Of a DNA stretch of 64,000 nucleotides, positions 15,529-42,467 are shown piece after piece (position 1 is the first letter of the stretch; each line of letters starts with the position of its first letter). Origin of the DNA: an uncultured Acidobacteriota bacterium (GTDB lineage: Bacteria > Acidobacteriota > Polarisedimenticolia > J045); NCBI GenBank assembly GCA_963702425.1, contig CAVPCQ010000017.1, positions 194,325-258,324 on the forward strand. The letters are read 5' to 3'. The notes beneath the pieces are model-generated. The model was not told the origin of the DNA. It saw nothing but the letters and a program-made list of their open reading frames with translations, and made no database searches. Both the position numbers and the translations under genes were made by a program.

Positions 15529-16368
15529 CTACGGTTTTCGCCCCGCGACGTCCACGCTGGTGAAGTAGTCGACCGGTGTGGTGCCGGCCGGCAGCGACTC
15601 CATGATCCGCCGGTAGAGCGGGTCCTCGAACTGCTGCATCGCGGCGACGTACTCCGGCTTGGGGTTCAGCGTGACGTCCGCCAGGCCGGCCGCTTCCAGG
15701 GCCCGGCGGTAGTCGTCGATCAGAACCGCACCGGCGATGCAGCCGACCCAGGCGACGATCTCCTGCTCGACCGCCTCCGGCAGGGGCCGCAGCAGCGCCA
15801 TGTCCGACACCGCCACGCGGCCGCCCGGCTTGAGGACCCGCGCGATCTCGCGGAAGACCTGCGGCTTGTCGGGCGAGAGGTTGATCACGCAGTTCGAGAT
15901 CACCACATCCACGGAGCCGTCGGCCACCGGCAGGTGCTCGATCTCGCCGAGCCGGAACTCGACGTTGTCGAGGCCGCTCTGTCCGCGATACCAGCCGATC
16001 CCGCCGCGCGCCTTGGCGATCATCTCCGGCGTCATGTCGACGCCGATGACGCGCCCCGTCGCACCGACGCGCGGCCCCGCCAGGAAGACGTCGAAGCCGC
16101 CGCCGCTGCCGAGGTCGAGCACGACCTCGCCCGGCTTCAGCGCGGCGATCAGCGCGGGGTTGCCGCACGAGAGGGCCATGTTCGCCCCCTCGGGAACCGC
16201 GGCCAGGTCCGCCGCCGCGTACCCGATCTGGGCCGCGAACTCGTGCGCCGGCATCGCACCCGGCATCCCGCAGCAACCGCCCGGTCCTTCGACCGCCACG
16301 CGCGCGTACCCCTCCCGCACTTCGCCCCGGATCCGCTCGTCGTTTGCCAGCTTGTCGTTCGTGCTCAT
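15529..16368 (-). CDS. arsM: Arsenite S-adenosylmethionine methyltransferase
   Basis: GCCG, LSCGNP, LDLGSGGG, ISNCVINL and WVGCIAGA conserved cysteines, in an ars operon. Confidence 0.92.
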   Translation of the reverse strand: MSTNDKLANDERIRGEVREGYARVAVEGPGGCCGMPGAMPAHEFAAQIGYAAADLAAVPEGANMALSCGNPALIAALKPGEVVLDLGSGGGFDVFLAGPRVGATGRVIGVDMTPEMIAKARGGIGWYRGQSGLDNVEFRLGEIEHLPVADGSVDVVISNCVINLSPDKPQVFREIARVLKPGGRVAVSDMALLRPLPEAVEQEIVAWVGCIAGAVLIDDYRRALEAAGLADVTLNPKPEYVAAMQQFEDPLYRRIMESLPAGTTPVDYFTSVDVAGRKP

Positions 16369-16805
16369 GGCGTGGCCTCCAGCTGCCTGGGCAGCGTTTC
16401 GATGAAGCTCCTGATCTCGTCACGGACCCGCCGGTACGGGGCGAGCGCGTCCTCTTCGGTCTTCGCGTCGCGGGCCAGCTTCGGCGGGTCGTCGAACCCG
16501 TGGTGCAGGCGCCGGGTCGCGCCGGCGAAGACCGGACAGCGCTCGTCGGCGGCGCCGCAGACGGTGACGACCCAGTCGAAGTCGGTCCGCTCCAGCTGGT
16601 CGATCGTCCGGGAGCGCTGCCCGCGGATGTCGACGCCCGCTTCGGCCATCACCTGCACGGCGCGGGGGTTCACGCCGTGGGCCTCGATCCCGGCCGAGTA
16701 CGGCTCGATCCGCTCACCGTGCAGGGCGCGCGCCCAGCCCTCGGCCATCTGGCTGCGGCACGAGTTGCCGGTGCAGAGGAAGAGGACTTTCAGCCGCGGT
16801 AGCAC
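16365..16805 (-). CDS. arsC: Arsenate reductase (LMW-PTPase/thioredoxin type)
   Basis: CTGNSCRSQMAEG, TVCG...CP and FDDPP motifs. Confidence 0.92.
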   Translation of the reverse strand: MLPRLKVLFLCTGNSCRSQMAEGWARALHGERIEPYSAGIEAHGVNPRAVQVMAEAGVDIRGQRSRTIDQLERTDFDWVVTVCGAADERCPVFAGATRRLHHGFDDPPKLARDAKTEEDALAPYRRVRDEIRSFIETLPRQLEATP

Positions 16806-17161
16806 GCCGTCACCTCCTCGAGGTCCAGCCCGCGCAGGTGCGCCAGGCGCTGGGCGTCATCCCGCACGCCGGGGTCGTCGCGCAGGGTGTCGAGCACCCA
16901 GCCGAGCGCCCAGCGCGCCGCCGGGCTGGCCTCCCGCCGCGCGAGCCGGAAGTAGCGCCACTTGCCGCGCCGCTCCATCTCGACCAGCCCGGCCTGCCGG
17001 AGCTGGTCGACGTGCTTGCTGACGGTCGAGGGGGCCAATTCCAGGAGCCCGATCAGGTGGCACAGGCACAACTCGCCGTCCCGGAGGGCCGCCAGAACCC
17101 GGACCCGAGAGGGGTCCGACAGCGCCTTCGCGATCTCGACCAGCTCGTCCTGGCTGCCCAT
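16790..17161 (-). CDS. arsR: ArsR/SmtB family regulator
   Basis: KALSDPSRVRVL...ELCLCHL...STVSKH. First gene of the ars operon. Confidence 0.9.
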   Translation of the reverse strand: MGSQDELVEIAKALSDPSRVRVLAALRDGELCLCHLIGLLELAPSTVSKHVDQLRQAGLVEMERRGKWRYFRLARREASPAARWALGWVLDTLRDDPGVRDDAQRLAHLRGLDLEEVTACYRG

Positions 17162-17225: not shown

Positions 17226-17263
17226 GTCGCCCGGGCGCGGGAGAGCCGTTCCTCGACCAGCTT

Positions 17264-17418
17264 GCGGTAGGGGCCGGCCTCCGTGCCGGCCCGCCCGGCG
17301 CCTGCGGGAGGGGCCGGCCTCCGTGCCGGCCCGCCCGGCGCCTGCGGTAGGGGCCGGCCTCCGTGCCGGCCCGCCCGGCGCCTGCGGCTTTCGGGCCGGC
17401 ACAGAGGCCGGCCCCTAC
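17264..17418. repeat. REP/BIME-like cluster: three 40-bp direct copies plus one inverted copy
   Basis: Core G(T/G)AGGGGCCGGCCTCCGTGCCGGCCC at 17267, 17307 and 17347. The inverted copy is at 17393-17418. Confidence 0.85.
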
Positions 17419-18296
17419 AGCCGGGCGGCGTAGTCCCGGATCAGCCCCTCCACCATGACCCCGATCCGCTGCATGTTCTCGGCCGACGACGCGCCCAGGT
17501 GCGGCGTGAAGATCGTGTTCGGCGCCGAGAGCAGCGGGCTGTCGGCGGCGGGGGGCTCGGAGCAGAAGACGTCGGTGGCGTAGCCGGCCAGCTTGCCGCT
17601 CCGCAGCGCATCGGCGACGTCCTGCTCGACGATGATCTCGCCGCGCGCGGTGTTGACCAGATACGCGCCGTCCCGGAAGTGCGCCAGCAGCGCGGCGTTG
17701 ATCATCCCGCGCGTCTCGTCCAGCAGGGGCATGTGGATCGAAACGAAGTCGGACTGCTGCAGGGTGTCGTGCAGCGAGGGCACGATCTCGGCGAAGTCGG
17801 TGAAGAACTGGTCGGGGTGCCAGCCGACGACCCGCATCTTGAAGCCCCGCGCCCGCGCCGCCAGCGCGAGCCCGATCCGGCCCAGGCCCAGGATGCCGAG
17901 CGTCTTGCCCGACAGCTCCGTGCGCTCCAACTGCCCCTTGGGCCACTGGCCGGCCCGGATCGCCGAGTCGCCCGCGGTGATCCGGCAGGGCATCGCGATC
18001 ATCATCGCGAACGCCAGCTCGGCCACGGCGGTCGTCGACGCTTCGGCCGTGTTGCGCACCAGGATCCCGCGCTGCTCCGCGTAGGGCCGGTCGATGTTGT
18101 CGAGCCCGACCCCGCCGCGGATCACCAGCTTCAGCTTCGGCGCCTTGTCGATGTACTCCTTCGTGACCTTGGTCTTGCTCCGGACCAGGACGATCTCGGC
18201 CTCGGCGACGCGCGCCGGGTCGGTCGTCACCTCGCCGTATCTCTCGAGCATCTTCGGGAGCTGCGCGTCGAACTTGTCGGAGATCAGGATCAGCAT
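17415..18296 (-). CDS. D-2-hydroxyacid dehydrogenase (short SerA-like phosphoglycerate dehydrogenase)
   Basis: RGGVGLDNID, GLGRIG, VNTARG and TPHLGAS motifs. Confidence 0.9.
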   Translation of the reverse strand: MLILISDKFDAQLPKMLERYGEVTTDPARVAEAEIVLVRSKTKVTKEYIDKAPKLKLVIRGGVGLDNIDRPYAEQRGILVRNTAEASTTAVAELAFAMMIAMPCRITAGDSAIRAGQWPKGQLERTELSGKTLGILGLGRIGLALAARARGFKMRVVGWHPDQFFTDFAEIVPSLHDTLQQSDFVSIHMPLLDETRGMINAALLAHFRDGAYLVNTARGEIIVEQDVADALRSGKLAGYATDVFCSEPPAADSPLLSAPNTIFTPHLGASSAENMQRIGVMVEGLIRDYAARL

Positions 18297-23086: not shown

Positions 23087-26000
23087 CTAGTTCCACTCCC
23101 CCTGGATGACGAACCCCGCCCAGTAGTACGGCGACGCCCAGCGCTTCTGCCGAGACATCTCCACCTGCGCCGCGCGCAGGGCTGCGGCGGGGCGCTGGCC
23201 GTTCTGCAGCATGCCGCGGTAGAACAGCCGCATCAGTTCGGACGTCGCAAGATCGTCGACGCGCCAGAGGCTGGCGACCACGCGCCGCGCACCGCCATAC
23301 ATGAAGCCGCGTGTCAGCCCGACGAGTCCTTCCCCCCGGACCTCCTTGCCGAGCGCGGTCTGGCAGGCGCTCAGCACGACCAGCTCGACCGGCAGCCTGA
23401 GGTTGTAGATCTCGTTCAGGCGCAGGAAGCCGTCCTGTGGATTTCCGCGCTCGTCGACGAGTGAGAAGACCAGCCCTGACAGCTCGGGGTGGTCGGTGTC
23501 GAGCAGCCCGTGAGTCGCGAAGTGAACGATCTTGAACTGGCCGAGGTCGTCGTTCATCGCCCCCTTCCGGCTGGCTGCAAAACCGGTGGCTTTCAGCAGC
23601 GAGTCGGCCGGCACCATCGACGCGATCATCTCGGCTTCCTCGCGCGAGAACGGCAGGCGGGAGAGCCGCCCGCGCATGTCGGACTGGAGGGCGGCGGCGG
23701 CCGGCCGCGCTGCGCCTTGCTCCCGTTCCGCGGAGAGGACGCGCGGATCGCTCGCATCGAACACGGGGTCCGCGAAGACCGCCACCTGCTTCTTGCCGCT
23801 CGGCCGCCCCGCGGTCTCGACGCGCACCGCCCCCAGTACGGACGCCGAGGGCAGGCTGATGATCTCGTGGTTCGCAATCAGCGGTCTCGCGCCGGCGCCG
23901 ATCCCGTCCTTGCGGCCGACCGGCTCGGGAAGCGACGCGAACGGCACGTACTCCAGCGCTCCGGGCGCGACGATCACGAGCCGCTTGTCCCGCCAGTCCC
24001 GCGCGAGGCGTGCGGCCGCCTTGCCCAGGAGCATTTCGCTGAGCGCCGCCGCCTGCGACGCCAGCTCGGCGTCGGCCCGGGACAGGCGCGTTTGTCGCGC
24101 GGCGCCGTTCTCGTCGCTCCTTGGCTGACGGGCAGTCAGCGCGTCGTAGACTGCGCGAGCGAGCTTTTCGATCGCGGCTCGCGGCGGAAGTTCGTAGCTC
24201 GAGATGGACGAGGGCGTGACCGCCCAGAGCCAGCTCCGCCGCTCGCCGAGCGCGATCTCGAGCAGGACGGTGTCCTCGTCGAGCAGCTGCCCCTGGATCG
24301 CGGCAGCCTTGAGCGACTGCGGCTGCGTCAACGCCGCGTAGCGTGGACTGGAAGCGCGAACCTGCGCCTCGACCGCGCTCAGCTGGTCCGTCAGGTCTTC
24401 GAGCTCCTTCGCGGTGTCCGTCGCCTGCGCCTCGGTGTGTTTCCCACCAAGCAGCCGCTCCCGATCGAACGCCTTGAGATGAACCCGCCGGCGGAGCGCC
24501 TGCTCCCTTGCGAGCAGGGCCGCGTCCGCGCCTTCGCGCGGGTCGACGCCGGACTCCGCGAGCATGTCGAGCAGGCCGCGCGCCCGGCTGCGCTCGCTGA
24601 GCTCGAGGGCCAGCGCCATGTCGCCCGCGCCGGACCGCTCGCGCGGCCCGGACATCAGGATCTCGATGAAGAGCGAGTACTTGTCCTGCACGGTCTCGAA
24701 GTACGACGAGCGCCAGTCCCGCCGCGTGAAATTCTGACGCAGCGATTCGCCGATCCGAACCGCCTCCTCGATCTGCTGCCGCGCCCGATTCCTGTCCCCG
24801 GAGGAGAGGCTCCAATCGGCGAGATGCGAGAGGGTCCGCGACTCGAGGTCGCGGGCCCGCAACGCGCGGGCGATCGCGAGCGCTGCAGTGCTCTCTTCCC
24901 GCGCCCTGCTCAGGTCGCCGAGCCGCGCATGCGCGACCGCGAGCAGGTTCAGGGTACTGGCCTCGGCATAGCGGAGCCCGGCCTCCCGGTACAGCTTCAG
25001 CGCCTGCCCCAGCGGTTCCAGCGCCCGGGTGTCGTGGTGCAGGTCGAGTTCGATACCGCCGAGGATCCGCAGCGCGTACGCCTCCCCGGTAGGGTCCCTG
25101 ATCTCGCGGCTGAGTTCCAGCGACTGCGTGGCGTAGGCCGTCGCCTCTGCGGTGTTGCCCGCGCTCCGGTGGACACGGGCCAGGCCGTTGAGCGCGGAGG
25201 ATTCGCCGTTGCGCTGGCCCATCTTCCGGCTCGCCTCCAGCGCCCGCCGATAGCGCTCCTGGGCATCCTCCCACTCGCCGAGATGCTCGTACGCCACCGC
25301 GAGGTTGTTCTGGACGGACGCTTCGGCCCGCCCGTCGCCGGCACGGATCGCCGCTTCGAGCGCGCGACCGAAGACTTCGGTCGACTTCTGGTACTCGCCC
25401 GTCCCGTTGTAGATCATGCCCATCCGCGCGAGGATGTTCGCGATCCGCCCCGGCTCACGCTCCGGCGAGGTCAGCGCAAGGGCTCGCTCGAAGTCCTCGA
25501 TCGCTGCCGCCACGTCGCCAAGCTCGTAGTGGGCGAGCCCCAGGTCCGACAGAACCCTGCTCTGCCCCGGCCGATCGTTCGCATCGGCCCGCAATGGCAG
25601 CGCACGCTCGTAGTACTCGATCGCCTTCGGCCGGTCGCCGACCCAGCGGTAGTACCAGCCCAGCCGGTTCAGCGTCTCGGACTCCCAGTAGAGGTCGGCG
25701 ATCGCCTCGTGGATCGACAGCGCCGCCAGGTACGACTCCAGTGCTTTCGGCTTGTCGTACGCCGTGTAGGCCGCGAGGCCGACCTGGCTCAGCGCTCGCC
25801 CCTCCTCGCGCTTCCGGCCGGTGCCGCGCCAGAGCGCGAGCGCCTGGTCCGCCGCCGCCTGCATTTTCGCGGTGTCGCCCAGGTCGTAGTAGACGTCGAA
25901 GAGCTCGCCCTGGGTTTCCGCCTCGCCGACAGGATCCCCCAGCGCGCGCCAGAGCACGAGCGCCCGCTCGAGCCTGACGATCGCCGCTCTCCTCTCTTCG

Positions 26001-26509
26001 TCGCTCGTGGCGCCGTCGAGGAGAGTGCGGCCTTCGCCCACGAGTCCCCACGCCTCGACTCGCTCGGGGTCGGACGCCTCCGCGGGCCGCTTCTCCGCGA
26101 GCGTCAGCCCGTACCGTAGCTTCTGCCCGGTGTCCGGATCGCTGGATGCGATCACGAGGCGCCACGTTCCCGACGCGTCGGCGATCGCCGCCATCTCCAG
26201 CGAGACCGGTTGAGTCGCGGCATCGTCGTGCTCGCGCAGCGACCGTCCGTCCGGTGCGATGAGTGTCGCCGACAGCTCTCCGACGAAGATCTCGATCGAG
26301 ATCTCGACGTAGTCACGCGCCCGGGCCTCGAAGGTGAACTCATGGGATTCGCCGGCCGGCAGCTCCCGCTCGACGACGGCGCCCAGAACGAGGTCCTTCG
26401 CTCCGGGCATCGAGCCGGCGAGCGACGCCGAAAGCAGGATCGCGAGCAGCCAGATCGCACCCGACGCCGCCAGCGGGAGCGGGAGCCCGGGCGGCGGGTG
26501 ACGATCCAT
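23087..26509 (-). CDS. TPR-CHAT (caspase-like) protease with a probable signal peptide and N-terminal beta-sandwich domain
   Basis: Hydrophobic N-terminus, about 10 TPRs, and an intact catalytic dyad (HFATHG and LSACQT). Also ASLWRVDD and PYYWAGF. Confidence 0.93.
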   Translation of the reverse strand: MDRHPPPGLPLPLAASGAIWLLAILLSASLAGSMPGAKDLVLGAVVERELPAGESHEFTFEARARDYVEISIEIFVGELSATLIAPDGRSLREHDDAATQPVSLEMAAIADASGTWRLVIASSDPDTGQKLRYGLTLAEKRPAEASDPERVEAWGLVGEGRTLLDGATSDEERRAAIVRLERALVLWRALGDPVGEAETQGELFDVYYDLGDTAKMQAAADQALALWRGTGRKREEGRALSQVGLAAYTAYDKPKALESYLAALSIHEAIADLYWESETLNRLGWYYRWVGDRPKAIEYYERALPLRADANDRPGQSRVLSDLGLAHYELGDVAAAIEDFERALALTSPEREPGRIANILARMGMIYNGTGEYQKSTEVFGRALEAAIRAGDGRAEASVQNNLAVAYEHLGEWEDAQERYRRALEASRKMGQRNGESSALNGLARVHRSAGNTAEATAYATQSLELSREIRDPTGEAYALRILGGIELDLHHDTRALEPLGQALKLYREAGLRYAEASTLNLLAVAHARLGDLSRAREESTAALAIARALRARDLESRTLSHLADWSLSSGDRNRARQQIEEAVRIGESLRQNFTRRDWRSSYFETVQDKYSLFIEILMSGPRERSGAGDMALALELSERSRARGLLDMLAESGVDPREGADAALLAREQALRRRVHLKAFDRERLLGGKHTEAQATDTAKELEDLTDQLSAVEAQVRASSPRYAALTQPQSLKAAAIQGQLLDEDTVLLEIALGERRSWLWAVTPSSISSYELPPRAAIEKLARAVYDALTARQPRSDENGAARQTRLSRADAELASQAAALSEMLLGKAAARLARDWRDKRLVIVAPGALEYVPFASLPEPVGRKDGIGAGARPLIANHEIISLPSASVLGAVRVETAGRPSGKKQVAVFADPVFDASDPRVLSAEREQGAARPAAAALQSDMRGRLSRLPFSREEAEMIASMVPADSLLKATGFAASRKGAMNDDLGQFKIVHFATHGLLDTDHPELSGLVFSLVDERGNPQDGFLRLNEIYNLRLPVELVVLSACQTALGKEVRGEGLVGLTRGFMYGGARRVVASLWRVDDLATSELMRLFYRGMLQNGQRPAAALRAAQVEMSRQKRWASPYYWAGFVIQGEWN

Positions 26510-26548
26510 GCAGGTTCCTCGGTCGGGGCGAGGAGCCGATTATACGCG

Positions 26549-26554
26549 CGGCCC
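26549..26554 (-). promoter_or_regulatory. Candidate sigma70 -10 box upstream of the CHAT gene
   Basis: Perfect TATAAT on the minus strand about 40 nt upstream of the ATG, in very GC-rich DNA. Confidence 0.4.
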
Positions 26555-26631
26555 CTCGCGGGGTCGTGCCGCCGGCCGGGACCGCCCGGGAAATCGAGAC
26601 CACCCGGGAGGGCAGCCGGCGGCGCCGCAGC

Positions 26632-28311
26632 TCACTCGGGATCGGTCGGGTCGGCGAACAGGACCTGCAGCTTCACGCTCCCGTGGCCGAACTGCGGGAA
26701 GTCGGGTGTCGCGATGTTTCCGGGATCGAGGTTCGACGCCGTGTCGTCGGGCGGGAACAGCACCAGGCTGTGCAGGAATGCGGCGATCGCCTGCTGCGCC
26801 CCGGCGGGCAGCCTCGCGAAGTTCGCGCGCGCGCCTTGCGCTTCACCGCCGTGGCGCATGATCACGTCCTGGAGCGTCATGCTGCGGCCGTCGTGGCCGT
26901 ACGGACCGGTCGAGCCGACGCCCCACAGCGCGGTCGACAGGAACTGCGTGCGCAGCTGACCGTCGTATTCGCGCTCGTAGAATGCCGGTCCGACGTCGTG
27001 GCGCTTGAAGTCGGTGTAGATCCCCTCCACGAGGAACGGCTTCCCGAGGGGCGCCTTGCGATGGGGGAACGCACTCCCGTCATCGACATCGCCGTGCAGC
27101 GGTGTCGCGGTGGCATAGAGCGCGTTGAAGATCCCGTGCACCGGGTCGTACGCGGTTCGCACCGACGCCACGCGCCGATCGCGCGAGATCGGCAGGTCGG
27201 GGACATGACAGCTCGCGCAACCGGCCTCTCCGAACAGCCGGCGGCCGGCCTGGGTCTGCTCGCTCTGCTCCCCGCTCGCGGGCGGGAAGTAGTTGAGCAG
27301 GTAGAACTCGAGGTAGTCGACGAGCGCGGTCGGCGCCTCGTTCGTGACCCCGTCGCCGTCGAGGTCCGCGGCAGGGTCGGCGGTCGGCGGACCCTCGATG
27401 GTGTCGCGCGAACCGTCGAAGACGCGTCCGGCCGGGCTCACGACTCGTCCGCCGAAACTGGCCGCCCGGAGCTCCGGATCGACCGCCTGCAGCCCCATCT
27501 CGTTCTGCAGCGCGCCGACTACGAATTCGCGGATCGAGGCCGTGCCGCCATGTGCAAAGAACGGCCTGACCCGCAGGTCGGCGTCGACACCCTCGACCTT
27601 CGAGGCGTCCACCGTGCCGTCAGGCAGTGCGGTGATCGTTCCATAGCGCAGACCCTTGCTCGCGAGCGGGACGATCACTGCCTTGCCGAGCGCCCTCGCG
27701 GCGATCACGGCCCGCGCACGGGTCGCGCGAAGATCCTCCGTGATTTCGTCGCCCAGCATCTCCTTCAGTCCGAGGCCGAAGAGATGGGGCGCATCGCGGC
27801 TGTCGGGCCTCGTCGCGACGTCGCCACCGAAGCCGGCGGAACCGCGCGGACGGCCGTGACACAGAGCGCAGCTGTCGGCCAGGCCGGCACCGATCGCCAG
27901 GTTGGTCTCGATACGGCCCGTGCCGTCGCCGGAGTTCGGACCGAGTCCGTTGGCGAGGCCGAACTTGCGTTGGAAGAGCTGGCGTCCGCGTCGGATCGCG
28001 CGAAACGGATCGCGGGCGATCAGGAAGGCGGACGAGTTCGGAGTCATGTCGTCGCCGCGCCCGGCACCGACTTCGTCCGGCAGCGACTTCGCGATCCCAG
28101 CCCCGGCCGCATTGGGGGCTTTGGTCTTGTCGACCAGTTGGGCCTGCGCGACCGCACTGCAGAGCAAGGACGCGAGCGCCAGGACGACGAGTCGCGTCCG
28201 GTACGGGCCGCTTGCTCCAGGCTGCCGCGTCGCGAGCTTCGGCGGCTCTTCGTTGCAGGCTGGTTCAGCGCCCCGGGGCTTCCACAGCGGCGCAGGTCGT
28301 CCGGCAGTCAT
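26632..28311 (-). CDS. Exported di-heme c-type oxidoreductase (DHOR/thiol oxidoreductase-like)
   Basis: Two CxxCH motifs (CALCH, CASCH), APHLFGLG, YTDFKRHD and LWGVGSTGPYGHDGR. Confidence 0.85.
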   Translation of the reverse strand: MTAGRPAPLWKPRGAEPACNEEPPKLATRQPGASGPYRTRLVVLALASLLCSAVAQAQLVDKTKAPNAAGAGIAKSLPDEVGAGRGDDMTPNSSAFLIARDPFRAIRRGRQLFQRKFGLANGLGPNSGDGTGRIETNLAIGAGLADSCALCHGRPRGSAGFGGDVATRPDSRDAPHLFGLGLKEMLGDEITEDLRATRARAVIAARALGKAVIVPLASKGLRYGTITALPDGTVDASKVEGVDADLRVRPFFAHGGTASIREFVVGALQNEMGLQAVDPELRAASFGGRVVSPAGRVFDGSRDTIEGPPTADPAADLDGDGVTNEAPTALVDYLEFYLLNYFPPASGEQSEQTQAGRRLFGEAGCASCHVPDLPISRDRRVASVRTAYDPVHGIFNALYATATPLHGDVDDGSAFPHRKAPLGKPFLVEGIYTDFKRHDVGPAFYEREYDGQLRTQFLSTALWGVGSTGPYGHDGRSMTLQDVIMRHGGEAQGARANFARLPAGAQQAIAAFLHSLVLFPPDDTASNLDPGNIATPDFPQFGHGSVKLQVLFADPTDPE

Positions 28312-28360
28312 CGGCGTCCTCCCTCGAATCGCGGCCGTCGCCGGCGGGATTCATCAGTAG

Positions 28361-28387
28361 GTGACACCGAAGCGCAAAACGTGTCGC
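28361..28387 (-). promoter_or_regulatory. Candidate ECF promoter, copy 1
   Basis: Minus-strand GCGACACGTTT-N11-GTCAC upstream of the di-heme gene. Spacing is identical to copy 2. Confidence 0.6.
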
Positions 28388-28415
28388 AGTGCCCCCCCGG
28401 AGCCGGGTCGACCCG

Positions 28416-29228
28416 TCAGGGCGTCTCCACGCGGAAGAAGTAGCGCTGAACCTCCGTCTGGCCGGCTGGGGGGCCCGCTTGCCCGAGCGAAAGGAAGTAG
28501 TCCCCCCGGGCGAGGCGCACGGCCGGAACCGTCACGGTCGCCACCGTGTCCTGCGCCGCCGGGCCTGTCGCAGCGTCCGCCGGCCCGCGCCAGACCTCCG
28601 CCCCTGCGAGTGACCGCACCGTCGCGACAAAGGGCGGCTGGCCGTCGATCTCGCCGCGCTCGAGGCGGAAGACGACGTTCCCCCGCCCGGCGACCAGCCG
28701 AACCGTCGGCGTCTGTCCCTCGCCGCGGACCATGATCGCCGGGAGCGTCATCGTCACCTCGGCCAGTTGCAGGGGAGCCGGCCCTCCGTCATTCCCGGTG
28801 CCCGGCGCCGATCCACGAGCCGCGAGATCCGCGCCTCCGCGCGGAGAACGTGTCTGCACGAACCATGCCGCGCCCACCGCACAGGCGGCGAGCGTCGCTG
28901 CGATCGCTCCTGTGGCCAGGGCGCGCCGGCTCCAGCGTCGCCCGAGCCAGCGCCTGCGGCGCAGTGCCAGTTCGATCGCCAGCCGTTCCCGGTGCACGGG
29001 GCTCGCGAGGTAGTGGCTCTCGAACAGCGCGCGCTCGGCCGGCCCGAGCCGCCCGGACAGGTAGTCCCCGACGAGATCCCGCTCGATCTCCGAGAGAAGA
29101 TCGAGCGATTCCTGGCACGCGAAGTACTCGCTTTCGAGAACGTCCGCGTCGCGTTCGGGGAGGGTGCCCATCAGGTATCGGCGGATGGCCGCGGGATCGG
29201 TCGTCGGTGTCGTCATGTCGTCACTCAC
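28416..29228 (-). CDS. Single-pass membrane anti-sigma-like protein
   Basis: N-terminal tandem degenerate ZAS-like helices (RRYLMGTL...; DYLSGRLGPAERALFESHY), one TM segment and a C-terminal beta-rich domain. Directly downstream of the ECF gene. Confidence 0.7.
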   Translation of the reverse strand: MSDDMTTPTTDPAAIRRYLMGTLPERDADVLESEYFACQESLDLLSEIERDLVGDYLSGRLGPAERALFESHYLASPVHRERLAIELALRRRRWLGRRWSRRALATGAIAATLAACAVGAAWFVQTRSPRGGADLAARGSAPGTGNDGGPAPLQLAEVTMTLPAIMVRGEGQTPTVRLVAGRGNVVFRLERGEIDGQPPFVATVRSLAGAEVWRGPADAATGPAAQDTVATVTVPAVRLARGDYFLSLGQAGPPAGQTEVQRYFFRVETP

Positions 29229-29230
29229 TG

Positions 29231-29257
29231 GTGACTAAGGGGTCCGAAACGTGTCGC
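29231..29257 (-). promoter_or_regulatory. Candidate ECF promoter, copy 2
   Basis: Minus-strand GCGACACGTTT-N11-GTCAC spanning the ECF stop codon, just upstream of the anti-sigma start. Confidence 0.6.
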
Positions 29258-29858
29258 CCGGCGCTCGCCCATGCCCCGCGCCGTCCGTCGGACCGGATGC
29301 GCAGCGCCGGATGCAGTCTTCGAGCCGGTCTCGAAGTCGCTGCACGCGGCTGCGCAGCGCGTTGTCGGTCAGGTCGTGGCGCAGTGCGAGACGGCGCCGG
29401 TTCTCGATCTTGTCCCGCCCGCCGTCTTCCGCATAGTAGGCGAGAACCAGGCCGCGGCCCTCCGCGGGAAGCTCGGCGAGGCAACGCTCGAGGCACGCGG
29501 CGATCATCGGCTCGGGGGAGGGCTCGCGGGCCGGGACGCGGGCCAGTTCGCGGGCATCGAGCGGCACGACGGGTGCGGCCGCGCGCCAGCTCTCGCGCAG
29601 GATCATTCGCGCGATCCCGAGCGCGAAGGCGGGCACGTCGGCGACCACGACCCCTTCCTGCAGCTTGCTCCCAAGACGGTCGAGCGCTTCGTCCGCGCAC
29701 TCCTCGGGCCAGGTCGCGCCGCGCCAGTCGAAGAACTTGGTCAGCGTGCGGCGCAGCCGCTCGAACTCCGCGCCGGCCTGTTCGGGGCTCGTGCCCAGCC
29801 GTTCGAGGAGGAGCGCGAAGCCGCGCTCCGGCGGATCCTCGGCGCGCCCGTGCCTCAT
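29235..29858 (-). CDS. ECF-type sigma-70 factor (divergent)
   Basis: Region 2-like RRTLTKFFDWRG..PEECADEALDR...GIARMILRE and region 4-like CLERCLAELP...LVLAYY...NALRSRVQRLRDRL. Confidence 0.8.
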   Translation of the reverse strand: MRHGRAEDPPERGFALLLERLGTSPEQAGAEFERLRRTLTKFFDWRGATWPEECADEALDRLGSKLQEGVVVADVPAFALGIARMILRESWRAAAPVVPLDARELARVPAREPSPEPMIAACLERCLAELPAEGRGLVLAYYAEDGGRDKIENRRRLALRHDLTDNALRSRVQRLRDRLEDCIRRCASGPTDGAGHGRAPGDTFRTP

Positions 29859-30060
29859 CGCTGTCCGTGCCGGGGAGCGAGGGGAACGGGCGCTGCGCAA
29901 CCGGCGCCAGCCCGTGCGCGGCCCGATCCTGTGGACGCGCGCCGCCTCGCCATCGAACAGTTCCCCCGGTCTCGCGTGAGGGGGCGGATGATAGCGATCC
30001 GGCCGGTTCTCCGCCAAGCGAGGCCACGCGGCGAAGGGCGCGCAGGTCGAGCTCCGGCTG

Positions 30061-31185
30061 CTACCGCGGCGACGCCCCCGCCATCCGCCAGGCGAAACGC
30101 GCGGCGTTCCCGACCCCCAGCGAGCGCAGCTTCGCCTGCCCGTCGTTGATCGCGAGGAAACGCTGGAACACCCGCGGCTCGCTGGCCAGCGCCGCGACCG
30201 CGCGGCGCCGCAGCGCCGGGTGGCGCTCGAGCAGCAGCAGCAGGCGGATCATCCGGTAGGGCTCGCGCTTCAACCGCGCGTGCGCCGCGACGTAGCGCGA
30301 CGGGTCCCCCGCGGCGAGCGCCTCGGCGAGCGCCTCGCCCTGCTGGAAGCCGAGCGACAGTCCCTCGCCCGTGATCGCATCGAAGTAGCCCGAGGCGTCG
30401 CCGACCAGCACGACGTTCCCCGCGACGAGCCCCTTCACGCGCTGCCGGAACGGCCCGGCGCCGCGCTCCTCGGAAACCGGCCGCGCCCCCTCGAGCCGCG
30501 CGAAGAGCTGCGGGAAACGGCGCAGCAGCTCGTCGCAGTGCAGACGACCGGGCGGCGCCAGGAACGCCACGCCGACCACGCCTTCGCAGACCGGCGTGAC
30601 GTAGGCATCGGCCCGCTCGCCCCAGTGGACCTCGACCAGGTCGGTCCAGGCGTCGACGGCGTAGTGCCGCCGCACGCCGAAGCGGCGCTCCCGGAACGGC
30701 CTACCCTCGAGACCGGCCCAGCGGCGCACTTTCGAGTGCAGCCCGTCGGCACCGACGATCCAGCGCGCCTCGAGGCGCCCCGCTCCGGTGTCGATCGCGC
30801 GGTGAGCGACGCCGTGCACCGCCTCGCCCCAGTGCAACTCGACGCCGACCTGCTCCGCGCGGCGTGCCAGCGCGAGCTGGAGCTGCAGCCGCCGCACGCC
30901 GAGCCCGTGCCCCTCGGAAAAGCGAGCCTCGGCGACGAGCGCCCCCCCGGCGGGAAGCGGCTCGACGTAGCGCACACCGACGAACGGCCGGCCGCAGTCG
31001 TCGTCCGGGCAGACGCCGAGTCGCGTCAATGCCGCGACGCCGTGCGGCATCACCCCTTCCCCGCAGGCCTTGTCGATCGGCGGCGTGGCGCGGTCGAACA
31101 GCGCGACCGTCATCCCCTTCGCGCGAAGCGCGATCGCGGTCGCCAGGCCGACCGGGCCGCCCCCGACGACGATCGCGTCACGCAC
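30061..31185 (-). CDS. FAD-dependent monooxygenase/oxidoreductase (SrsC-like)
   Basis: GGGPVG, KACGEG, GADGLHS and VGDASGYFDAITGEG. Coupled to the PKS operon. Confidence 0.85.
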   Translation of the reverse strand: MRDAIVVGGGPVGLATAIALRAKGMTVALFDRATPPIDKACGEGVMPHGVAALTRLGVCPDDDCGRPFVGVRYVEPLPAGGALVAEARFSEGHGLGVRRLQLQLALARRAEQVGVELHWGEAVHGVAHRAIDTGAGRLEARWIVGADGLHSKVRRWAGLEGRPFRERRFGVRRHYAVDAWTDLVEVHWGERADAYVTPVCEGVVGVAFLAPPGRLHCDELLRRFPQLFARLEGARPVSEERGAGPFRQRVKGLVAGNVVLVGDASGYFDAITGEGLSLGFQQGEALAEALAAGDPSRYVAAHARLKREPYRMIRLLLLLERHPALRRRAVAALASEPRVFQRFLAINDGQAKLRSLGVGNAARFAWRMAGASPR

Positions 31186-31717
31186 GGTACGCCTCCGCCA
31201 GCGCGCGCTCCTCGGCCGGGATCCGCACCGCCATCAGGATCGCGTTCAGCACGCTGAAGACGATCGCGGTCAGGACCGCCGTGTGCACCAGCGGCAGCGC
31301 GAGGATCTCCAGCGCCACGACCAGGTAGTTCGGGTGGCGCAGAAAGCGATAGGGACCGGTCGCGACGGCGGGCTCGCCCGGCACGACGACGACCCGCGTG
31401 CTCCACCTGTCGCCGAGCGTCTTCAGCAGCCAGACCCGCAGCACCTCCGCCGCCAGCAGCAGGGCCACCGCCGTCAGTGCCAGCGCCGGCACGAACGGCC
31501 GCTCCAGGAGCACGACCTCCAGCGGCGCCGCGACCAGGAACGCGGCGTGCAGCGCGACCATGAAGGGATAGTGCGCCGCCGCGACCTCGCGCCCGCCGCG
31601 CGCCTTCAGCCGTCGGACGTGGACCCGGGCCAGCGACAGCTCCGCCAGGCGCTGCAGGGCGACCAGCGCGACCAGCACGACGAACGCGGCGCGCGTGCCG
31701 CCCGGGAGCGCGCTCAC
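31178..31717 (-). CDS. Isoprenylcysteine carboxyl methyltransferase family protein (SrsB/BpsB-like)
   Basis: QRLAEL, HYPFMVALH, LGDRWSTRV, GPYRFLRHPNY and RIPAEERAL motifs. Confidence 0.9.
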   Translation of the reverse strand: MSALPGGTRAAFVVLVALVALQRLAELSLARVHVRRLKARGGREVAAAHYPFMVALHAAFLVAAPLEVVLLERPFVPALALTAVALLLAAEVLRVWLLKTLGDRWSTRVVVVPGEPAVATGPYRFLRHPNYLVVALEILALPLVHTAVLTAIVFSVLNAILMAVRIPAEERALAEAYRA

Positions 31718-32763
31718 CACTCGAACAGCACCAGCTCCGAGCAGAACCCGGGACCCATCGCGAGCAGCAGCCCTTTCTCGCCGGGCTTCCCCGGCCGCTC
31801 GCGCATCGTGTCGGCCATCACGAACAGCACCGACGCCGACGAGAGGTTCCCGACCTCGCCCAGCGAGCGCCACGACAGCTCGAGCTGCTCCCGCTCCAGC
31901 CCCAGCCCCGCGGCCACCGCGTCCAGCACCTTGGGCCCCCCGGGGTGGCAGACCCACGTCCGGACGTCCGCGCGAGCGAGCCCGTTCTCGGCCAGGAACG
32001 CGTCGACGTCCTTCGGCAGCTGGTTGCGCGCCAGGTCCGGCACCGAGGGATCGAGCACGATCTTGAAGCCGCGCTCGGAGATGTCCCAGCCCATCGCCCC
32101 CTCGGTGTCGGGATAGAAGACCGAGCGGGTCGCGAGGATCCGCGGGCCGGGGGCCTCGACGCGGTCGCCGGTGATGATCGCCGCCGCCGCGCCGTCGCCG
32201 AACAGCCCCGACGCGATCAGGTTGGGCAGCGACAGGTCCTCGCGCTGCAGCGTCAGCGAGCAGAGCTCGACCGCGAGCAGCACGGCGACCTCGTCGGGGA
32301 AGGCCTTGACGTAGTCCGCCGCGCGGGCGACTCCGGCCGCGCCGGCGACGCAGCCGAGACCGAAGATCGGGTTGCGCTTGACGGTCGGCGGGAAGCTCAT
32401 CCGGTTGGAGAGGCGCGCGTCGATCGAAGGGGTCGCGATCCCCGTGACGGAGACGAAGAAGATCGCGCCGATGTCGCCGACGGCGAGGCCCGCTCCCTCG
32501 AGGGCGCGCCGGATCGCCAGCTCGCCGACGTCCTGCGCCACGCGGATCCAGGCGTCGTTCGCCTTGCCCCAGGTCGTGAGGTCCGGGTAGTCGGTGATCG
32601 GGATCGCGAGGTGGCGCCCGCCGACGAGCACGTTGCGATGCAGGTTCTCCAGCCGCGCCTGCTGGTGGGGCGGGAGGTTCCAGTGCGCGGTGAGGGCCGC
32701 CAGCAGCTGGGGTTGGTCGTAGTAATGCGGCGGGACGGCGGTGCCGACCGCGGCCAGGCGCAC
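31714..32763 (-). CDS. Type III polyketide synthase (SrsA/BpsA-like)
   Basis: Catalytic triad GLGCVAG (Cys), CHPGG (His) and GNLSS (Asn), plus MGPGF. Confidence 0.95.
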   Translation of the reverse strand: MRLAAVGTAVPPHYYDQPQLLAALTAHWNLPPHQQARLENLHRNVLVGGRHLAIPITDYPDLTTWGKANDAWIRVAQDVGELAIRRALEGAGLAVGDIGAIFFVSVTGIATPSIDARLSNRMSFPPTVKRNPIFGLGCVAGAAGVARAADYVKAFPDEVAVLLAVELCSLTLQREDLSLPNLIASGLFGDGAAAAIITGDRVEAPGPRILATRSVFYPDTEGAMGWDISERGFKIVLDPSVPDLARNQLPKDVDAFLAENGLARADVRTWVCHPGGPKVLDAVAAGLGLEREQLELSWRSLGEVGNLSSASVLFVMADTMRERPGKPGEKGLLLAMGPGFCSELVLFEW

Positions 32764-36706: not shown

Positions 36707-37471
36707 ATGCGGCCCTTGGTTCGCGCCCTGCTCGTGTTCGCCGCGCTCGCGCCCGCCGCTGCGGCCGCGGGGACCGCGTCGACAGCGAGTCCGGGCGCCG
36801 ACGGCACGCCGGCCGCCGCCGCCGCGCTCCCCGCGGGTGCCAACACGATGTGCCCGGTGCTCACCGACGAGCCGGTCGACCCGTCGATCTGGGTCGACTA
36901 CCAGGGCCAGCGCGTCTACCTCTGCTGCCAGCGCTGCCGGAAGAAGTTCATCGAGGATCCGGCCCCGTACCTGGCGGACCTCGCAGCGAGCCCCCGCGCG
37001 GGCGGGGACGCGCCCGCGGCCCCGCTCTCCGGCAGGGAACGCCTGGTCCGTTTCGCCGGCCGCTTCCACCCCTCGACGGTCCACTTCCCGATCGCGCTGA
37101 TCGCCGCGGCCGCGCTGTTCGAGATCCTCGGCGCGGCGCGCCGCGACCGGGCGCTGGCCGTGTCCGCCGTCTGGCTCGCGGCGCTCGGCGCCTCCGGCGC
37201 GGTCGCCGCGGCGGCCCTGGGCTGGTCCGCGGCGGCCTTCTCGGCCTTCCCCGGCGACCTGGCCTGGATCCTGGAAACCCACCGCTGGCTCGGCGTCGGG
37301 ACCGCCGCGACGGCGGTTCTCGCCGCGACGGCCGGGGTCCTCTCGCTGCGCCGCGGCGGCGGCTGGCCCTTTCTTTTCCGGCTGCTCCTGCTGGCGGCGA
37401 CGGTGCTGGTTCTCGTCACCGGCTTCTTCGGCGGCACCCTGATCTACGGCTTCGACCACTATCGCTGGTAG
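36707..37471 (+). CDS. YHS domain + DUF2231 membrane protein
   Basis: CPV...LCCQRCRKKF, then HPSTVHFPIAL, HRWLG and GFFGGTLIYG. Confidence 0.8.
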   Translation: MRPLVRALLVFAALAPAAAAAGTASTASPGADGTPAAAAALPAGANTMCPVLTDEPVDPSIWVDYQGQRVYLCCQRCRKKFIEDPAPYLADLAASPRAGGDAPAAPLSGRERLVRFAGRFHPSTVHFPIALIAAAALFEILGAARRDRALAVSAVWLAALGASGAVAAAALGWSAAAFSAFPGDLAWILETHRWLGVGTAATAVLAATAGVLSLRRGGGWPFLFRLLLLAATVLVLVTGFFGGTLIYGFDHYRW

Positions 37472-37534
37472 GGGCCGGGCTCCGTCCCGGCCCGCTTCCG
37501 CGCAAGCGGGCCGCCACGGAGGGCGGCCCCTATC
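37468..37534. repeat. REP-like inverted pair (degenerate)
   Basis: GTAGGGGCCGGGCTCCGTCCCGGCCC with the inverted copy GGGCCGCCACGGAGGGCGGCCCCTAT. Confidence 0.7.
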
Positions 37535-37615
37535 GCTGGTCCCTGAATGGTCGCGAACGGCGCCACGGGCGCCCGCGCAGTGCCTACAATGGAAACAGAG
37601 GGAGGGCTCGCGGCC

Positions 37616-42200: not shown

Positions 42201-42253
42201 CGTCCATCCCCCCCGGGAATGGTGTGCATTGTACGGCGGATGACGGACAGCGT

Positions 42254-42467
42254 GTAGGGGCCGGCCTCCGTGCCGGCCCGCAACGTGCGCCGCGCGGCCT
42301 GCAGGGGCCGGCCTCCGTGCCGGCCCGCAACGTGCGCCGCGCGGCGTGTAGGGGCCGGCCTCCGTGCCGGCCCGCAACGTGCGCCGCGCGGCCTGCAGGG
42401 GCCGGCCTCCGTGCCGGCCCATCGTGTCGTCGGAACGACTCGGGCCGGCACGGAGGCCGGCCCCTAC
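42254..42467. repeat. REP/BIME-like cluster: four 47-bp direct copies plus one inverted copy
   Basis: G(T/C)AGGGGCCGGCCTCCGTGCCGGCCC at 42254, 42301, 42348 and 42395, inverted at 42442-42467. Same core as the 17.3-kb cluster. Confidence 0.88.

Follow-up and report, generated by a model that had tools for sequence, protein, structure and literature searches.

A 64,000-nucleotide stretch of the genome of an uncultured Acidobacteriota bacterium (contig CAVPCQ010000017.1, positions 194,325 to 258,324; hereafter the window) carries four co-oriented genes on its minus strand, at the coordinates given by the initial annotation (Table 1). They encode a sigma factor of the extracytoplasmic function (ECF) type, a probable anti-sigma factor anchored in the membrane, a di-heme c protein and a caspase-like TPR-CHAT protease. 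We think the chances slightly favor a pathway, predicted from sequence comparisons, in which the CHAT protein cuts the anti-sigma after Arg168 and RseP then frees the sigma for transcription of the di-heme and anti-sigma genes. To a wider proposition we give an even chance: that the locus is one copy of a widespread, modular trans-envelope switch, in which a periplasmic, separase-like, Arg-specific cysteine protease would cut a portable R|G site located 20-100 residues outside the membrane. The site would be shared by anti-sigmas whose outer domains are unrelated (immunoglobulin (Ig)-like, TPR or protease-fused) and by several ECF groups, and each copy would take on a different exported cargo through the promoter of its own sigma.

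Conservation of the sigma/anti-sigma/CHAT trio was surveyed in 171 sigma copies, taken from 60 regions around the best of 102 matches in the phylum, 31 named genome loci and the best 80 of 198 metagenome loci; several of the metagenome loci are near-duplicates, and related copies do not count as independent. An anti-sigma homolog follows the sigma gene in 126 of the 129 copies that have at least 1 kb of downstream DNA. Where at least 5 kb is present on both sides (81 copies), CHAT is found within 5 kb in 66 and an anti-sigma in 78, and the phylum sample alone gives 40 of 54 for CHAT. As a control, CHAT is near 4 of the 33 other sigma-70-family genes of this genome. The CHAT gene can be upstream, downstream, divergent or convergent with respect to the sigma gene, and since its order and orientation vary in this manner, the linkage has survived rearrangement. 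The constant trio with variable cargo that the initial annotation expected from such a survey is therefore what the neighborhoods show, and we regard the pairing of this sigma with its anti-sigma as very probable.

Loss of the parts is also informative. The CHAT subfamily (E<=1e-55) occurs in 51 of 401 genomes, and by hand count 37 of these are among the 49 genomes with the sigma. Twelve sigma-positive genomes lack a subfamily CHAT; in four, a CHAT of greater divergence lies adjacent or is fused. In seven of the remaining eight, the anti-sigma is absent, truncated, frameshifted or without its Ig/Arg part, a pattern of correlated decay. Only one aligned anti-sigma lacks the Arg, and the 10 kb fetched there, as far as the contig end, contain no CHAT.

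The anti-sigma is predicted to be a single-pass protein with an extracytoplasmic beta domain, as first described. Its homologs have one hydrophobic helix with basic residues before it, which implies an N-in/C-out topology. The structural model (predicted local distance difference test (pLDDT) 85.8) has helices at residues 12-73 (pLDDT >90), a disordered linker at 127-147 and a beta-sandwich C-domain, for which only generic Ig/TIG folds were matched (best Z 8.4, root-mean-square deviation 3.0, 100 residues aligned). Matches to phage structures were also returned and were not taken as indicating function. A fold search with the N-domain gave no match. The proposal of a ZAS-like N-terminus holds in part: the helical fold resembling an anti-sigma domain and the single membrane helix after it are there, and zinc binding is not borne out. 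The zf-HC2 match is weak (E 3.5e-4, below cut-off), the family has no HxxxCxxC and no conserved Cys/His column, and in 85 of 124 homologs the first 100 residues are free of Cys.

The outer domain contains a candidate cleavage site. In an alignment of 108 homologs (8 frameshifted or duplicate rows were dropped from 116 candidates), Arg168 is the most conserved residue of this domain, present in 107 (98% in an automatic alignment of 124), and the next Arg column reaches 70%. A small residue (G, S, D or A) comes next in 101 of the 107. In the AlphaFold model, Arg168 is found within a loop (163-174) between the first two strands, the first of which spans 157-162, and the loop is predicted with lower confidence than its flanks. 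The motif is not tied to the Ig-like fold. Fused anti-sigma-TPR-CHAT proteins, or Rosetta stones, occur in this sigma family (L052, L062 and L221), as do TPR-type anti-sigmas (L059, L061 and L189), and both kinds keep R|G 35-45 residues past the membrane helix in an outer fold that is unrelated. In four scored fused and TPR-type anti-sigmas it is the top-scoring Arg of the first 330 residues, and in the L189 CHAT it ranks second. Among nine fetched CHAT loci from genomes without this sigma, three (L230-L232) adjoin Ig-Arg anti-sigmas that apparently belong to other ECF groups. A search for longer relatives with the anti-sigma profile gave none among proteins of 621-2000 aa at E<=1e-15; this is weak evidence, as the fused forms were seen directly in loci.

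Other arrangements were seen as well. Two anti-sigmas of the same family (L222:8553-9107 and L225:6872-7408) have a short periplasmic tail ending in a conserved Cys segment and no CHAT nearby, possibly reflecting a different input route. The genome of the window (G000) itself holds further sets. One (L202:4792-11084, contig C18) is a second combination of ECF sigma, anti-sigma and exported TPR-CHAT, with an apparently frameshifted, zinc-type TPR anti-sigma bearing a P-rich R|G motif, an AAA-like gene between anti-sigma and CHAT, and a divergent kelch-repeat cargo. In a third (L203:5405-9524, contig C32), an ECF sigma is accompanied by a single-pass anti-sigma of the zinc type whose membrane helix is closely followed by an Arg, by a frameshifted CHAT whose C-terminal tail is hydrophobic and by a divergent FG-GAP cargo. 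Contig C37 (L205:6771-12424) combines an ECF sigma and a TPR/CHAT gene with a small partner that looks soluble, which may represent a cytoplasmic version. On contig C25 (L204:3818-10523), two genes for exported TPR-CHAT proteins lie in tandem, and no sigma is found within 5 kb of them.

The CHAT protein matches PF12770 (E 5e-67) and TPR families. The His/Cys dyad characteristic of clan CD, which had been read as intact, consists of H1000 and C1049; both residues are invariant in 59 of 59 homologs, along with E958, E1060 and D1086. The signal-peptide-like N-terminus noted at the outset holds family-wide. Here it is a hydrophobic stretch at 13-31 with S-L-A at 29-31 and no lipobox, and when a 12-residue window just before the N-terminal beta domain was scored, 92 of 100 homologs reached a Kyte-Doolittle hydropathy of at least 2.0, compared with 6 of 603 internal windows. 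Export to the periplasm by a Sec-type signal is thus predicted. The beta domain itself is PPC-like by a weak match in 3 of the 9 N-terminal pieces scanned.

Structural comparison relates this protease to separase. The best Foldseek matches of the CHAT model are separases, followed by DdvA (third match) and Csx29, and profiles also gave matches where phmmer of the CHAT domain against PDB sequences gave nothing useful. In a profile alignment (E 0.004), D1086 aligns with the Asp of the separase motif LWDVTDR, which we take to be Asp2151 of the C. thermophilum enzyme. That invariant separase Asp forms a salt bridge with the P1 Arg (PMC10317155), and acidic S1 residues are described in Arg-specific clan CD enzymes (PMC4626109). 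By this alignment, D1086 is the candidate S1 partner of a P1 Arg at position 168. Csx29 has no Asp at the aligned position. The modeling of CHAT with the anti-sigma C-domain that was initially proposed (CHAT 275-1140, anti-sigma 145-270) scored 0.58, with 0.00 for the best control; the runs share at least 81% of contacts, and the partner pLDDT is at least 76. Of 157 solved complexes, 116 reach the mark used for this score, as do 2 of 215 mismatches; only 18 of the 157, and both of these mismatches, do so with a score of 0.60 or below. The predicted contact gives weak support.

The sigma was initially called a divergent ECF factor, and this identification stands despite the divergence. The window protein has no Pfam match, is missed by TIGR02937 and matches NCBIfam ECF models only weakly (TIGR02989 at E 1e-8, below cut-off). 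However, a profile of 44 homologs aligned with 25 ordinary ECF sigmas of the same genome gave an hhalign probability of 97.7% (129 columns, E 1.4e-12, residues 48-183). Sigma70_r4_2 is matched by 24 of the 44 homologs and r2 by none, and Atlas neighbors carry Sigma70_r2/r4 at 0.97-0.98. The protein has the sigma2 and sigma4 regions only, in about 200 aa, with a co-encoded anti-sigma at +1 and a putative bipartite, fixed-spacing promoter near its own locus. In total, 838 homologs were found at E<=1e-10. Acidobacteriota records account for most homologs in the genome loci, with some from Planctomycetota and Gammaproteobacteria. A single-sequence search of the genome contigs gave no match where an alignment-based search did, and the profile had no match in the PDB at E<=0.01. 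Within the phylum, the sigma is found in 49 of 401 genomes, at 102 places in all and with up to 7 copies per genome. Five sampled genomes of the same family gave no match, so this copy may have been laterally acquired.

The di-heme protein matches PF06537 (DHOR) at 40.3 bits (cut-off 22) and only weakly resembles solved peroxidases (E>=0.2). It has CxxCH motifs at 148 and 365 and a hydrophobic stretch at 42-60, and its homologs have signal-peptide-like N-termini, as is expected of an exported DHOR/bCcP-MauG-like enzyme. Reading the upstream regions revealed a two-part motif, CGACAC(G/A)TTT-N13-CAC, with identical spacing in all 59 strict hits. It precedes 18 of 20 linked di-heme genes (the window is included, and the pattern was drawn from this set) and 23 of 170 sigma genes, with shuffle means of 0.1-0.4 across gene classes. 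A weight matrix found 102 sites in 2.0 Mb of loci and 1 in reversed DNA. In the 5.1 Mb genome there are only two strong sites, both in this locus, before the anti-sigma and di-heme genes. For the window itself, comparison with shuffles and matrix scores is circular, as pattern and matrix were partly drawn from these sites; it is the other genomes and a held-out control that count. Motif counts on the reverse strand (7/20 and 30/170) could not serve as a control, since an intergenic region is common to both genes of a divergent pair. The held-out control was decisive: the motif precedes none of 8 di-heme genes unlinked to the sigma, whose best scores are negative. From the asymmetry of the motif, its fixed spacing, its orientation and its co-inheritance, we infer that it is the promoter of this sigma. 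No RNA set was listed among the sequencing runs.

With the motif absent from the unlinked copies and present at nearly all linked ones, the di-heme gene appears to be a recruited cargo. It is the commonest neighbor of the trio (21 loci including the window) and is often divergent from the sigma gene. The suggestion that the enzyme is the regulated output is accordingly one that we hold with high confidence. Other motif-led or recurrent neighbors are mostly exported as well and include a second di-heme family and FG-GAP, Ig-repeat, RTX-repeat, DsbA-like, TonB-type, clostripain and S53 proteins.

The second di-heme family is unrelated to the first (two CxxCH, no Pfam match at 1e-5) and is found behind the same motif (L084:8536-9930 and L151:6720-8219); it recurs at 5 loci, which suggests repeated recruitment of di-heme enzymes. 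At L140:517-6591, three motif-led genes encode proteins without a Pfam match, one apparently a long coiled coil, and a related open reading frame is found behind the motif in L121. A literature search on a possible link to DUF928 proteins gave no paper.

In the mechanism that we propose, basal sigma and anti-sigma likely come from a sigma70-like promoter upstream of the sigma gene; a consensus scan of a 7.5 kb region gave 2 such sites with 0.2 expected. As this promoter overlaps the upstream TTG at 30017, that codon is a less probable start for the sigma than the ATG. The CHAT protein is possibly expressed from a promoter of its own, whose TATAAT is not among the sites of the consensus scan and has no −35 match. 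A periplasmic signal would bind the TPR/PPC-like part of CHAT and align the dyad. As a dedicated, separase-like site-1 protease, CHAT would then cut the anti-sigma after Arg168, leaving a periplasmic stub of about 45 residues, with the Ig domain held by its first strand alone up to its dissociation. Once this domain is lost, RseP, which is present in the genome, would gain access for site-2 cleavage. The freed sigma would transcribe the di-heme and anti-sigma genes from the two-part promoter, and the motif copy directed into the anti-sigma gene would likely provide negative feedback.

The closest precedent for such a pathway is DdvA/DdvS of Myxococcus xanthus (PDB 8ROT, 8RW5), where CHAT was proposed as a site-1 protease acting in trans, with RseP next; the action of RseP on truncated DdvA was shown and cleavage by CHAT was not, as far as the available part of the paper goes (PMC11506125). 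Both systems have an ECF sigma, a single-pass anti-sigma and a TPR-CHAT with a His/Cys dyad on the periplasmic side, which for our locus is judged from hydropathy. In DdvA, however, anti-sigma, membrane helix and TPR-CHAT form one chain, whereas here CHAT is separate and has an extra PPC-like domain. The N-domain of DdvA is of the zinc type; here it is zinc-less, and the outer domain is Ig-like with a near-invariant Arg. The likely output differs too, being a di-heme enzyme behind motif sites confined to the locus instead of CBASS/CRISPR. Fused forms are described only in Myxococcota and one Comamonas, again in the available part (PMC11506125), in contrast to the range of the present family. 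The locus would thus work like DdvA/DdvS without being a member, as it is unfused, zinc-less and without a defense regulon. The concept of a trans-envelope CHAT site-1 protease is hence not new. What is new is the split variant with its promoter-like motif, the likely di-heme output, the tally of correlated decay and the separase-Asp alignment, and no split periplasmic sigma/anti-sigma/CHAT system was found in the literature searched, which leaves most subscription journals outside it.

Our locus was initially likened to the Csx29/Csx30 pair of type III-E CRISPR loci. The likeness holds insofar as a TPR-CHAT acts on an anti-sigma and frees an ECF sigma with motif sites in its own locus, and in Craspase (Csx29/Csx30/CASP-sigma) the cleavage is proven (PMC10028731). 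Craspase, however, is cytoplasmic, is RNA-gated via Cas7-11 and cuts after Met or Leu, so that the transmembrane DdvA/DdvS system is the better model. The reported absence of an array and cas genes was upheld to this extent: the window has no CRISPR array, and a search of the 91%-complete genome for cas1 returned nothing, with no separate search made for Cas7-11. PADLOC returned generic matches only (6 proteins). The separases share the LWxVxD motif and its Asp with our CHAT protein, but are eukaryotic and cytoplasmic and cut ExxR motifs in cohesin. In the RseA/DegS/RseP and cell-surface cascades, the site-1 enzyme is a general serine or tail-specific protease, whereas here it would be a locus-dedicated cysteine protease. 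The two-step proteolysis of a single-pass anti-sigma is what they have in common with our proposal (PMC10028731). ECF54 also has its sigma gene near a TPR-CHAT gene, but according to the available supplement it is restricted to Actinobacteria, has no identified anti-sigma and neighbors carboxypeptidase-regulatory and subtilase genes, features that our locus does not share (PMC7826278).

Several observations weigh against cleavage by CHAT after Arg168. The CHAT signal peptides were judged by hydropathy and not with SignalP, and the complex modeling gave no interface, so that R168 is not placed in the active site. R168 and D1086 are both nearly invariant and leave no variation for covariation testing. 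In M. xanthus, DdvA with a mutated dyad remained a repressor, and phage Mx4 did not bring about cleavage under the conditions reported (PMC11506125). The strict motif precedes only 9 of 161 anti-sigma genes, and it precedes 9 of 99 CHAT genes, from which it follows that CHAT is among the outputs at some loci. In genome G241 the Ig-Arg anti-sigma is intact, and no CHAT of the subfamily was found there. Of 15 well-flanked loci that have no CHAT as a neighbor, 11 retain the Arg (one frameshifted). Most such Arg-keeping genomes encode the CHAT subfamily elsewhere; retention of the Arg fits action in trans, but it also fits a structural Arg. This retention, along with the mostly exported cargo and the motif-led CHAT genes, could be accounted for if CHAT were a regulon effector that processes exported cargo or foreign proteins and Arg168 were structural. 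We find this unlikely, as the trio is constant while the cargo varies, R|G survives the change of outer fold, and the decay of the anti-sigma tracks the absence of CHAT. The di-heme protein was itself considered as a CHAT substrate at its GRG motif and rejected, since its best site scores 0.9 compared with 17.8 for the anti-sigma, and GRG is kept in unlinked copies too.

Two further possibilities keep CHAT at the anti-sigma. It could cut after Arg168 without any signal, as constitutive maturation, with the Ig domain held by its first strand until force, a ligand or damage pulls the pieces apart. The position of R168 after that strand would leave just such a one-strand junction, and self-cleaving anti-sigmas with associated products are described (PMC11506125). 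Yet the CHAT protein has a large TPR array and a PPC-like domain, its structural relatives separase, Csx29 and DdvA are allosterically gated, and the fused forms keep R|G with unrelated outer domains; we consider this improbable. Little likelihood, too, is given to a CHAT that only binds, either taking the Arg loop for a pseudo-substrate or shielding it like a cap, presumably in the manner of RseB, or being restrained by the anti-sigma, with a general periplasmic protease making the site-1 cut. The weak predicted contact would suit binding without cleavage, and so would the lack of a phenotype of the DdvA dyad mutants under the conditions tested (PMC11506125). On the other hand, the dyad is invariant and a small residue nearly always follows the Arg, and because a P1 Arg turns the separase inhibitor securin into a substrate (PMC10317155), one would not expect to meet an Arg there in an inhibitor. 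As the other role for the di-heme protein, that of the ligand had been offered initially; in this reading the protein, as ligand or redox sensor, would activate CHAT. It would share the periplasm with CHAT and is its most recurrent neighbor, but most trios have no di-heme gene, 7 of the 10 genomes (among 401) with this di-heme family gave no sigma match, and the gene is behind the sigma-linked motif only when linked. We consider this idea very improbable.

Table 1. Positions in the window of the genes, putative promoter elements and candidate cleavage site
Feature	Position	Strand	Basis or remarks
Divergent ECF-type sigma factor, 207 aa from ATG	29235..29858	-	hhalign; TIGR02989 below cut-off; Atlas neighbors
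Single-pass anti-sigma candidate, 270 aa	28416..29228	-	N-domain ~10-90, transmembrane helix ~103-121, linker, Ig-like periplasmic domain ~155-270
Exported di-heme c protein (DHOR, PF06537), 559 aa	26632..28311	-	Likely regulated cargo
TPR-CHAT protease, predicted exported, 1140 aa	23087..26509	-	Signal-like helix 14-30, PPC-like beta domain 45-142, TPR superhelix 147-592, CHAT ~745-1137
Sigma70-like promoter TTGGCG-18-TATCAT, upstream of sigma gene	29988..30017	-	Consensus scan, 9/12 matches; function inferred
ECF-promoter-like motif, copy 1, within sigma 3' end, directed into anti-sigma gene	29231..29255	-	Motif pattern/matrix
ECF-promoter-like motif, copy 2, upstream of di-heme gene	28361..28385	-	Motif pattern/matrix
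Arg168 codon, candidate P1 residue, LxPxxxR|G loop	28725..28727	-	Arg in 107/108 homologs
TATAAT hexamer, 30 nt in front of the CHAT start; may be a housekeeping promoter of this gene	26539..26544	-	Read directly; no −35 match

Elsewhere in the window, GC-rich palindromic, REP-like tandem repeats are found at 17260-17424, 37467-37539 and 42247-42420, with periods of 40 and 47 nt; their units are near-identical and without spacers, and they are therefore not CRISPR. At 30061-32763 (minus strand) are genes for a type III polyketide synthase and an FAD monooxygenase and a frame resembling a membrane methyltransferase, two of the three identified by Pfam, which presumably resemble alkylresorcinol srsABC clusters and are apparently unrelated to the sigma/CHAT module. 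At 15529-17161 (minus strand), ArsR-like, ArsC-like and arsenite-methyltransferase-like reading frames were recognized by eye from their translations.

To our knowledge, most bacterial TPR-CHAT proteases have no known substrate. If the modular switch is real, it would give these enzymes defined natural substrates outside CRISPR, with the cut site and the promoter predicted to the residue. The site-1 role proposed for the CHAT of DdvA could not be tested since its trigger is unknown. The split system has separable soluble parts (the mature CHAT and a 126-residue ectodomain), one predicted scissile bond after Arg168, a predicted S1 Asp1086 and a predicted reporter promoter, which would open the question to direct tests both in vitro and in E. 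coli. Sigma, promoter and protease also form a candidate set of orthogonal parts. The sigma family, missed here by TIGR02937 and Pfam, is nevertheless present in roughly an eighth of the phylum genomes sampled (49 of 401).

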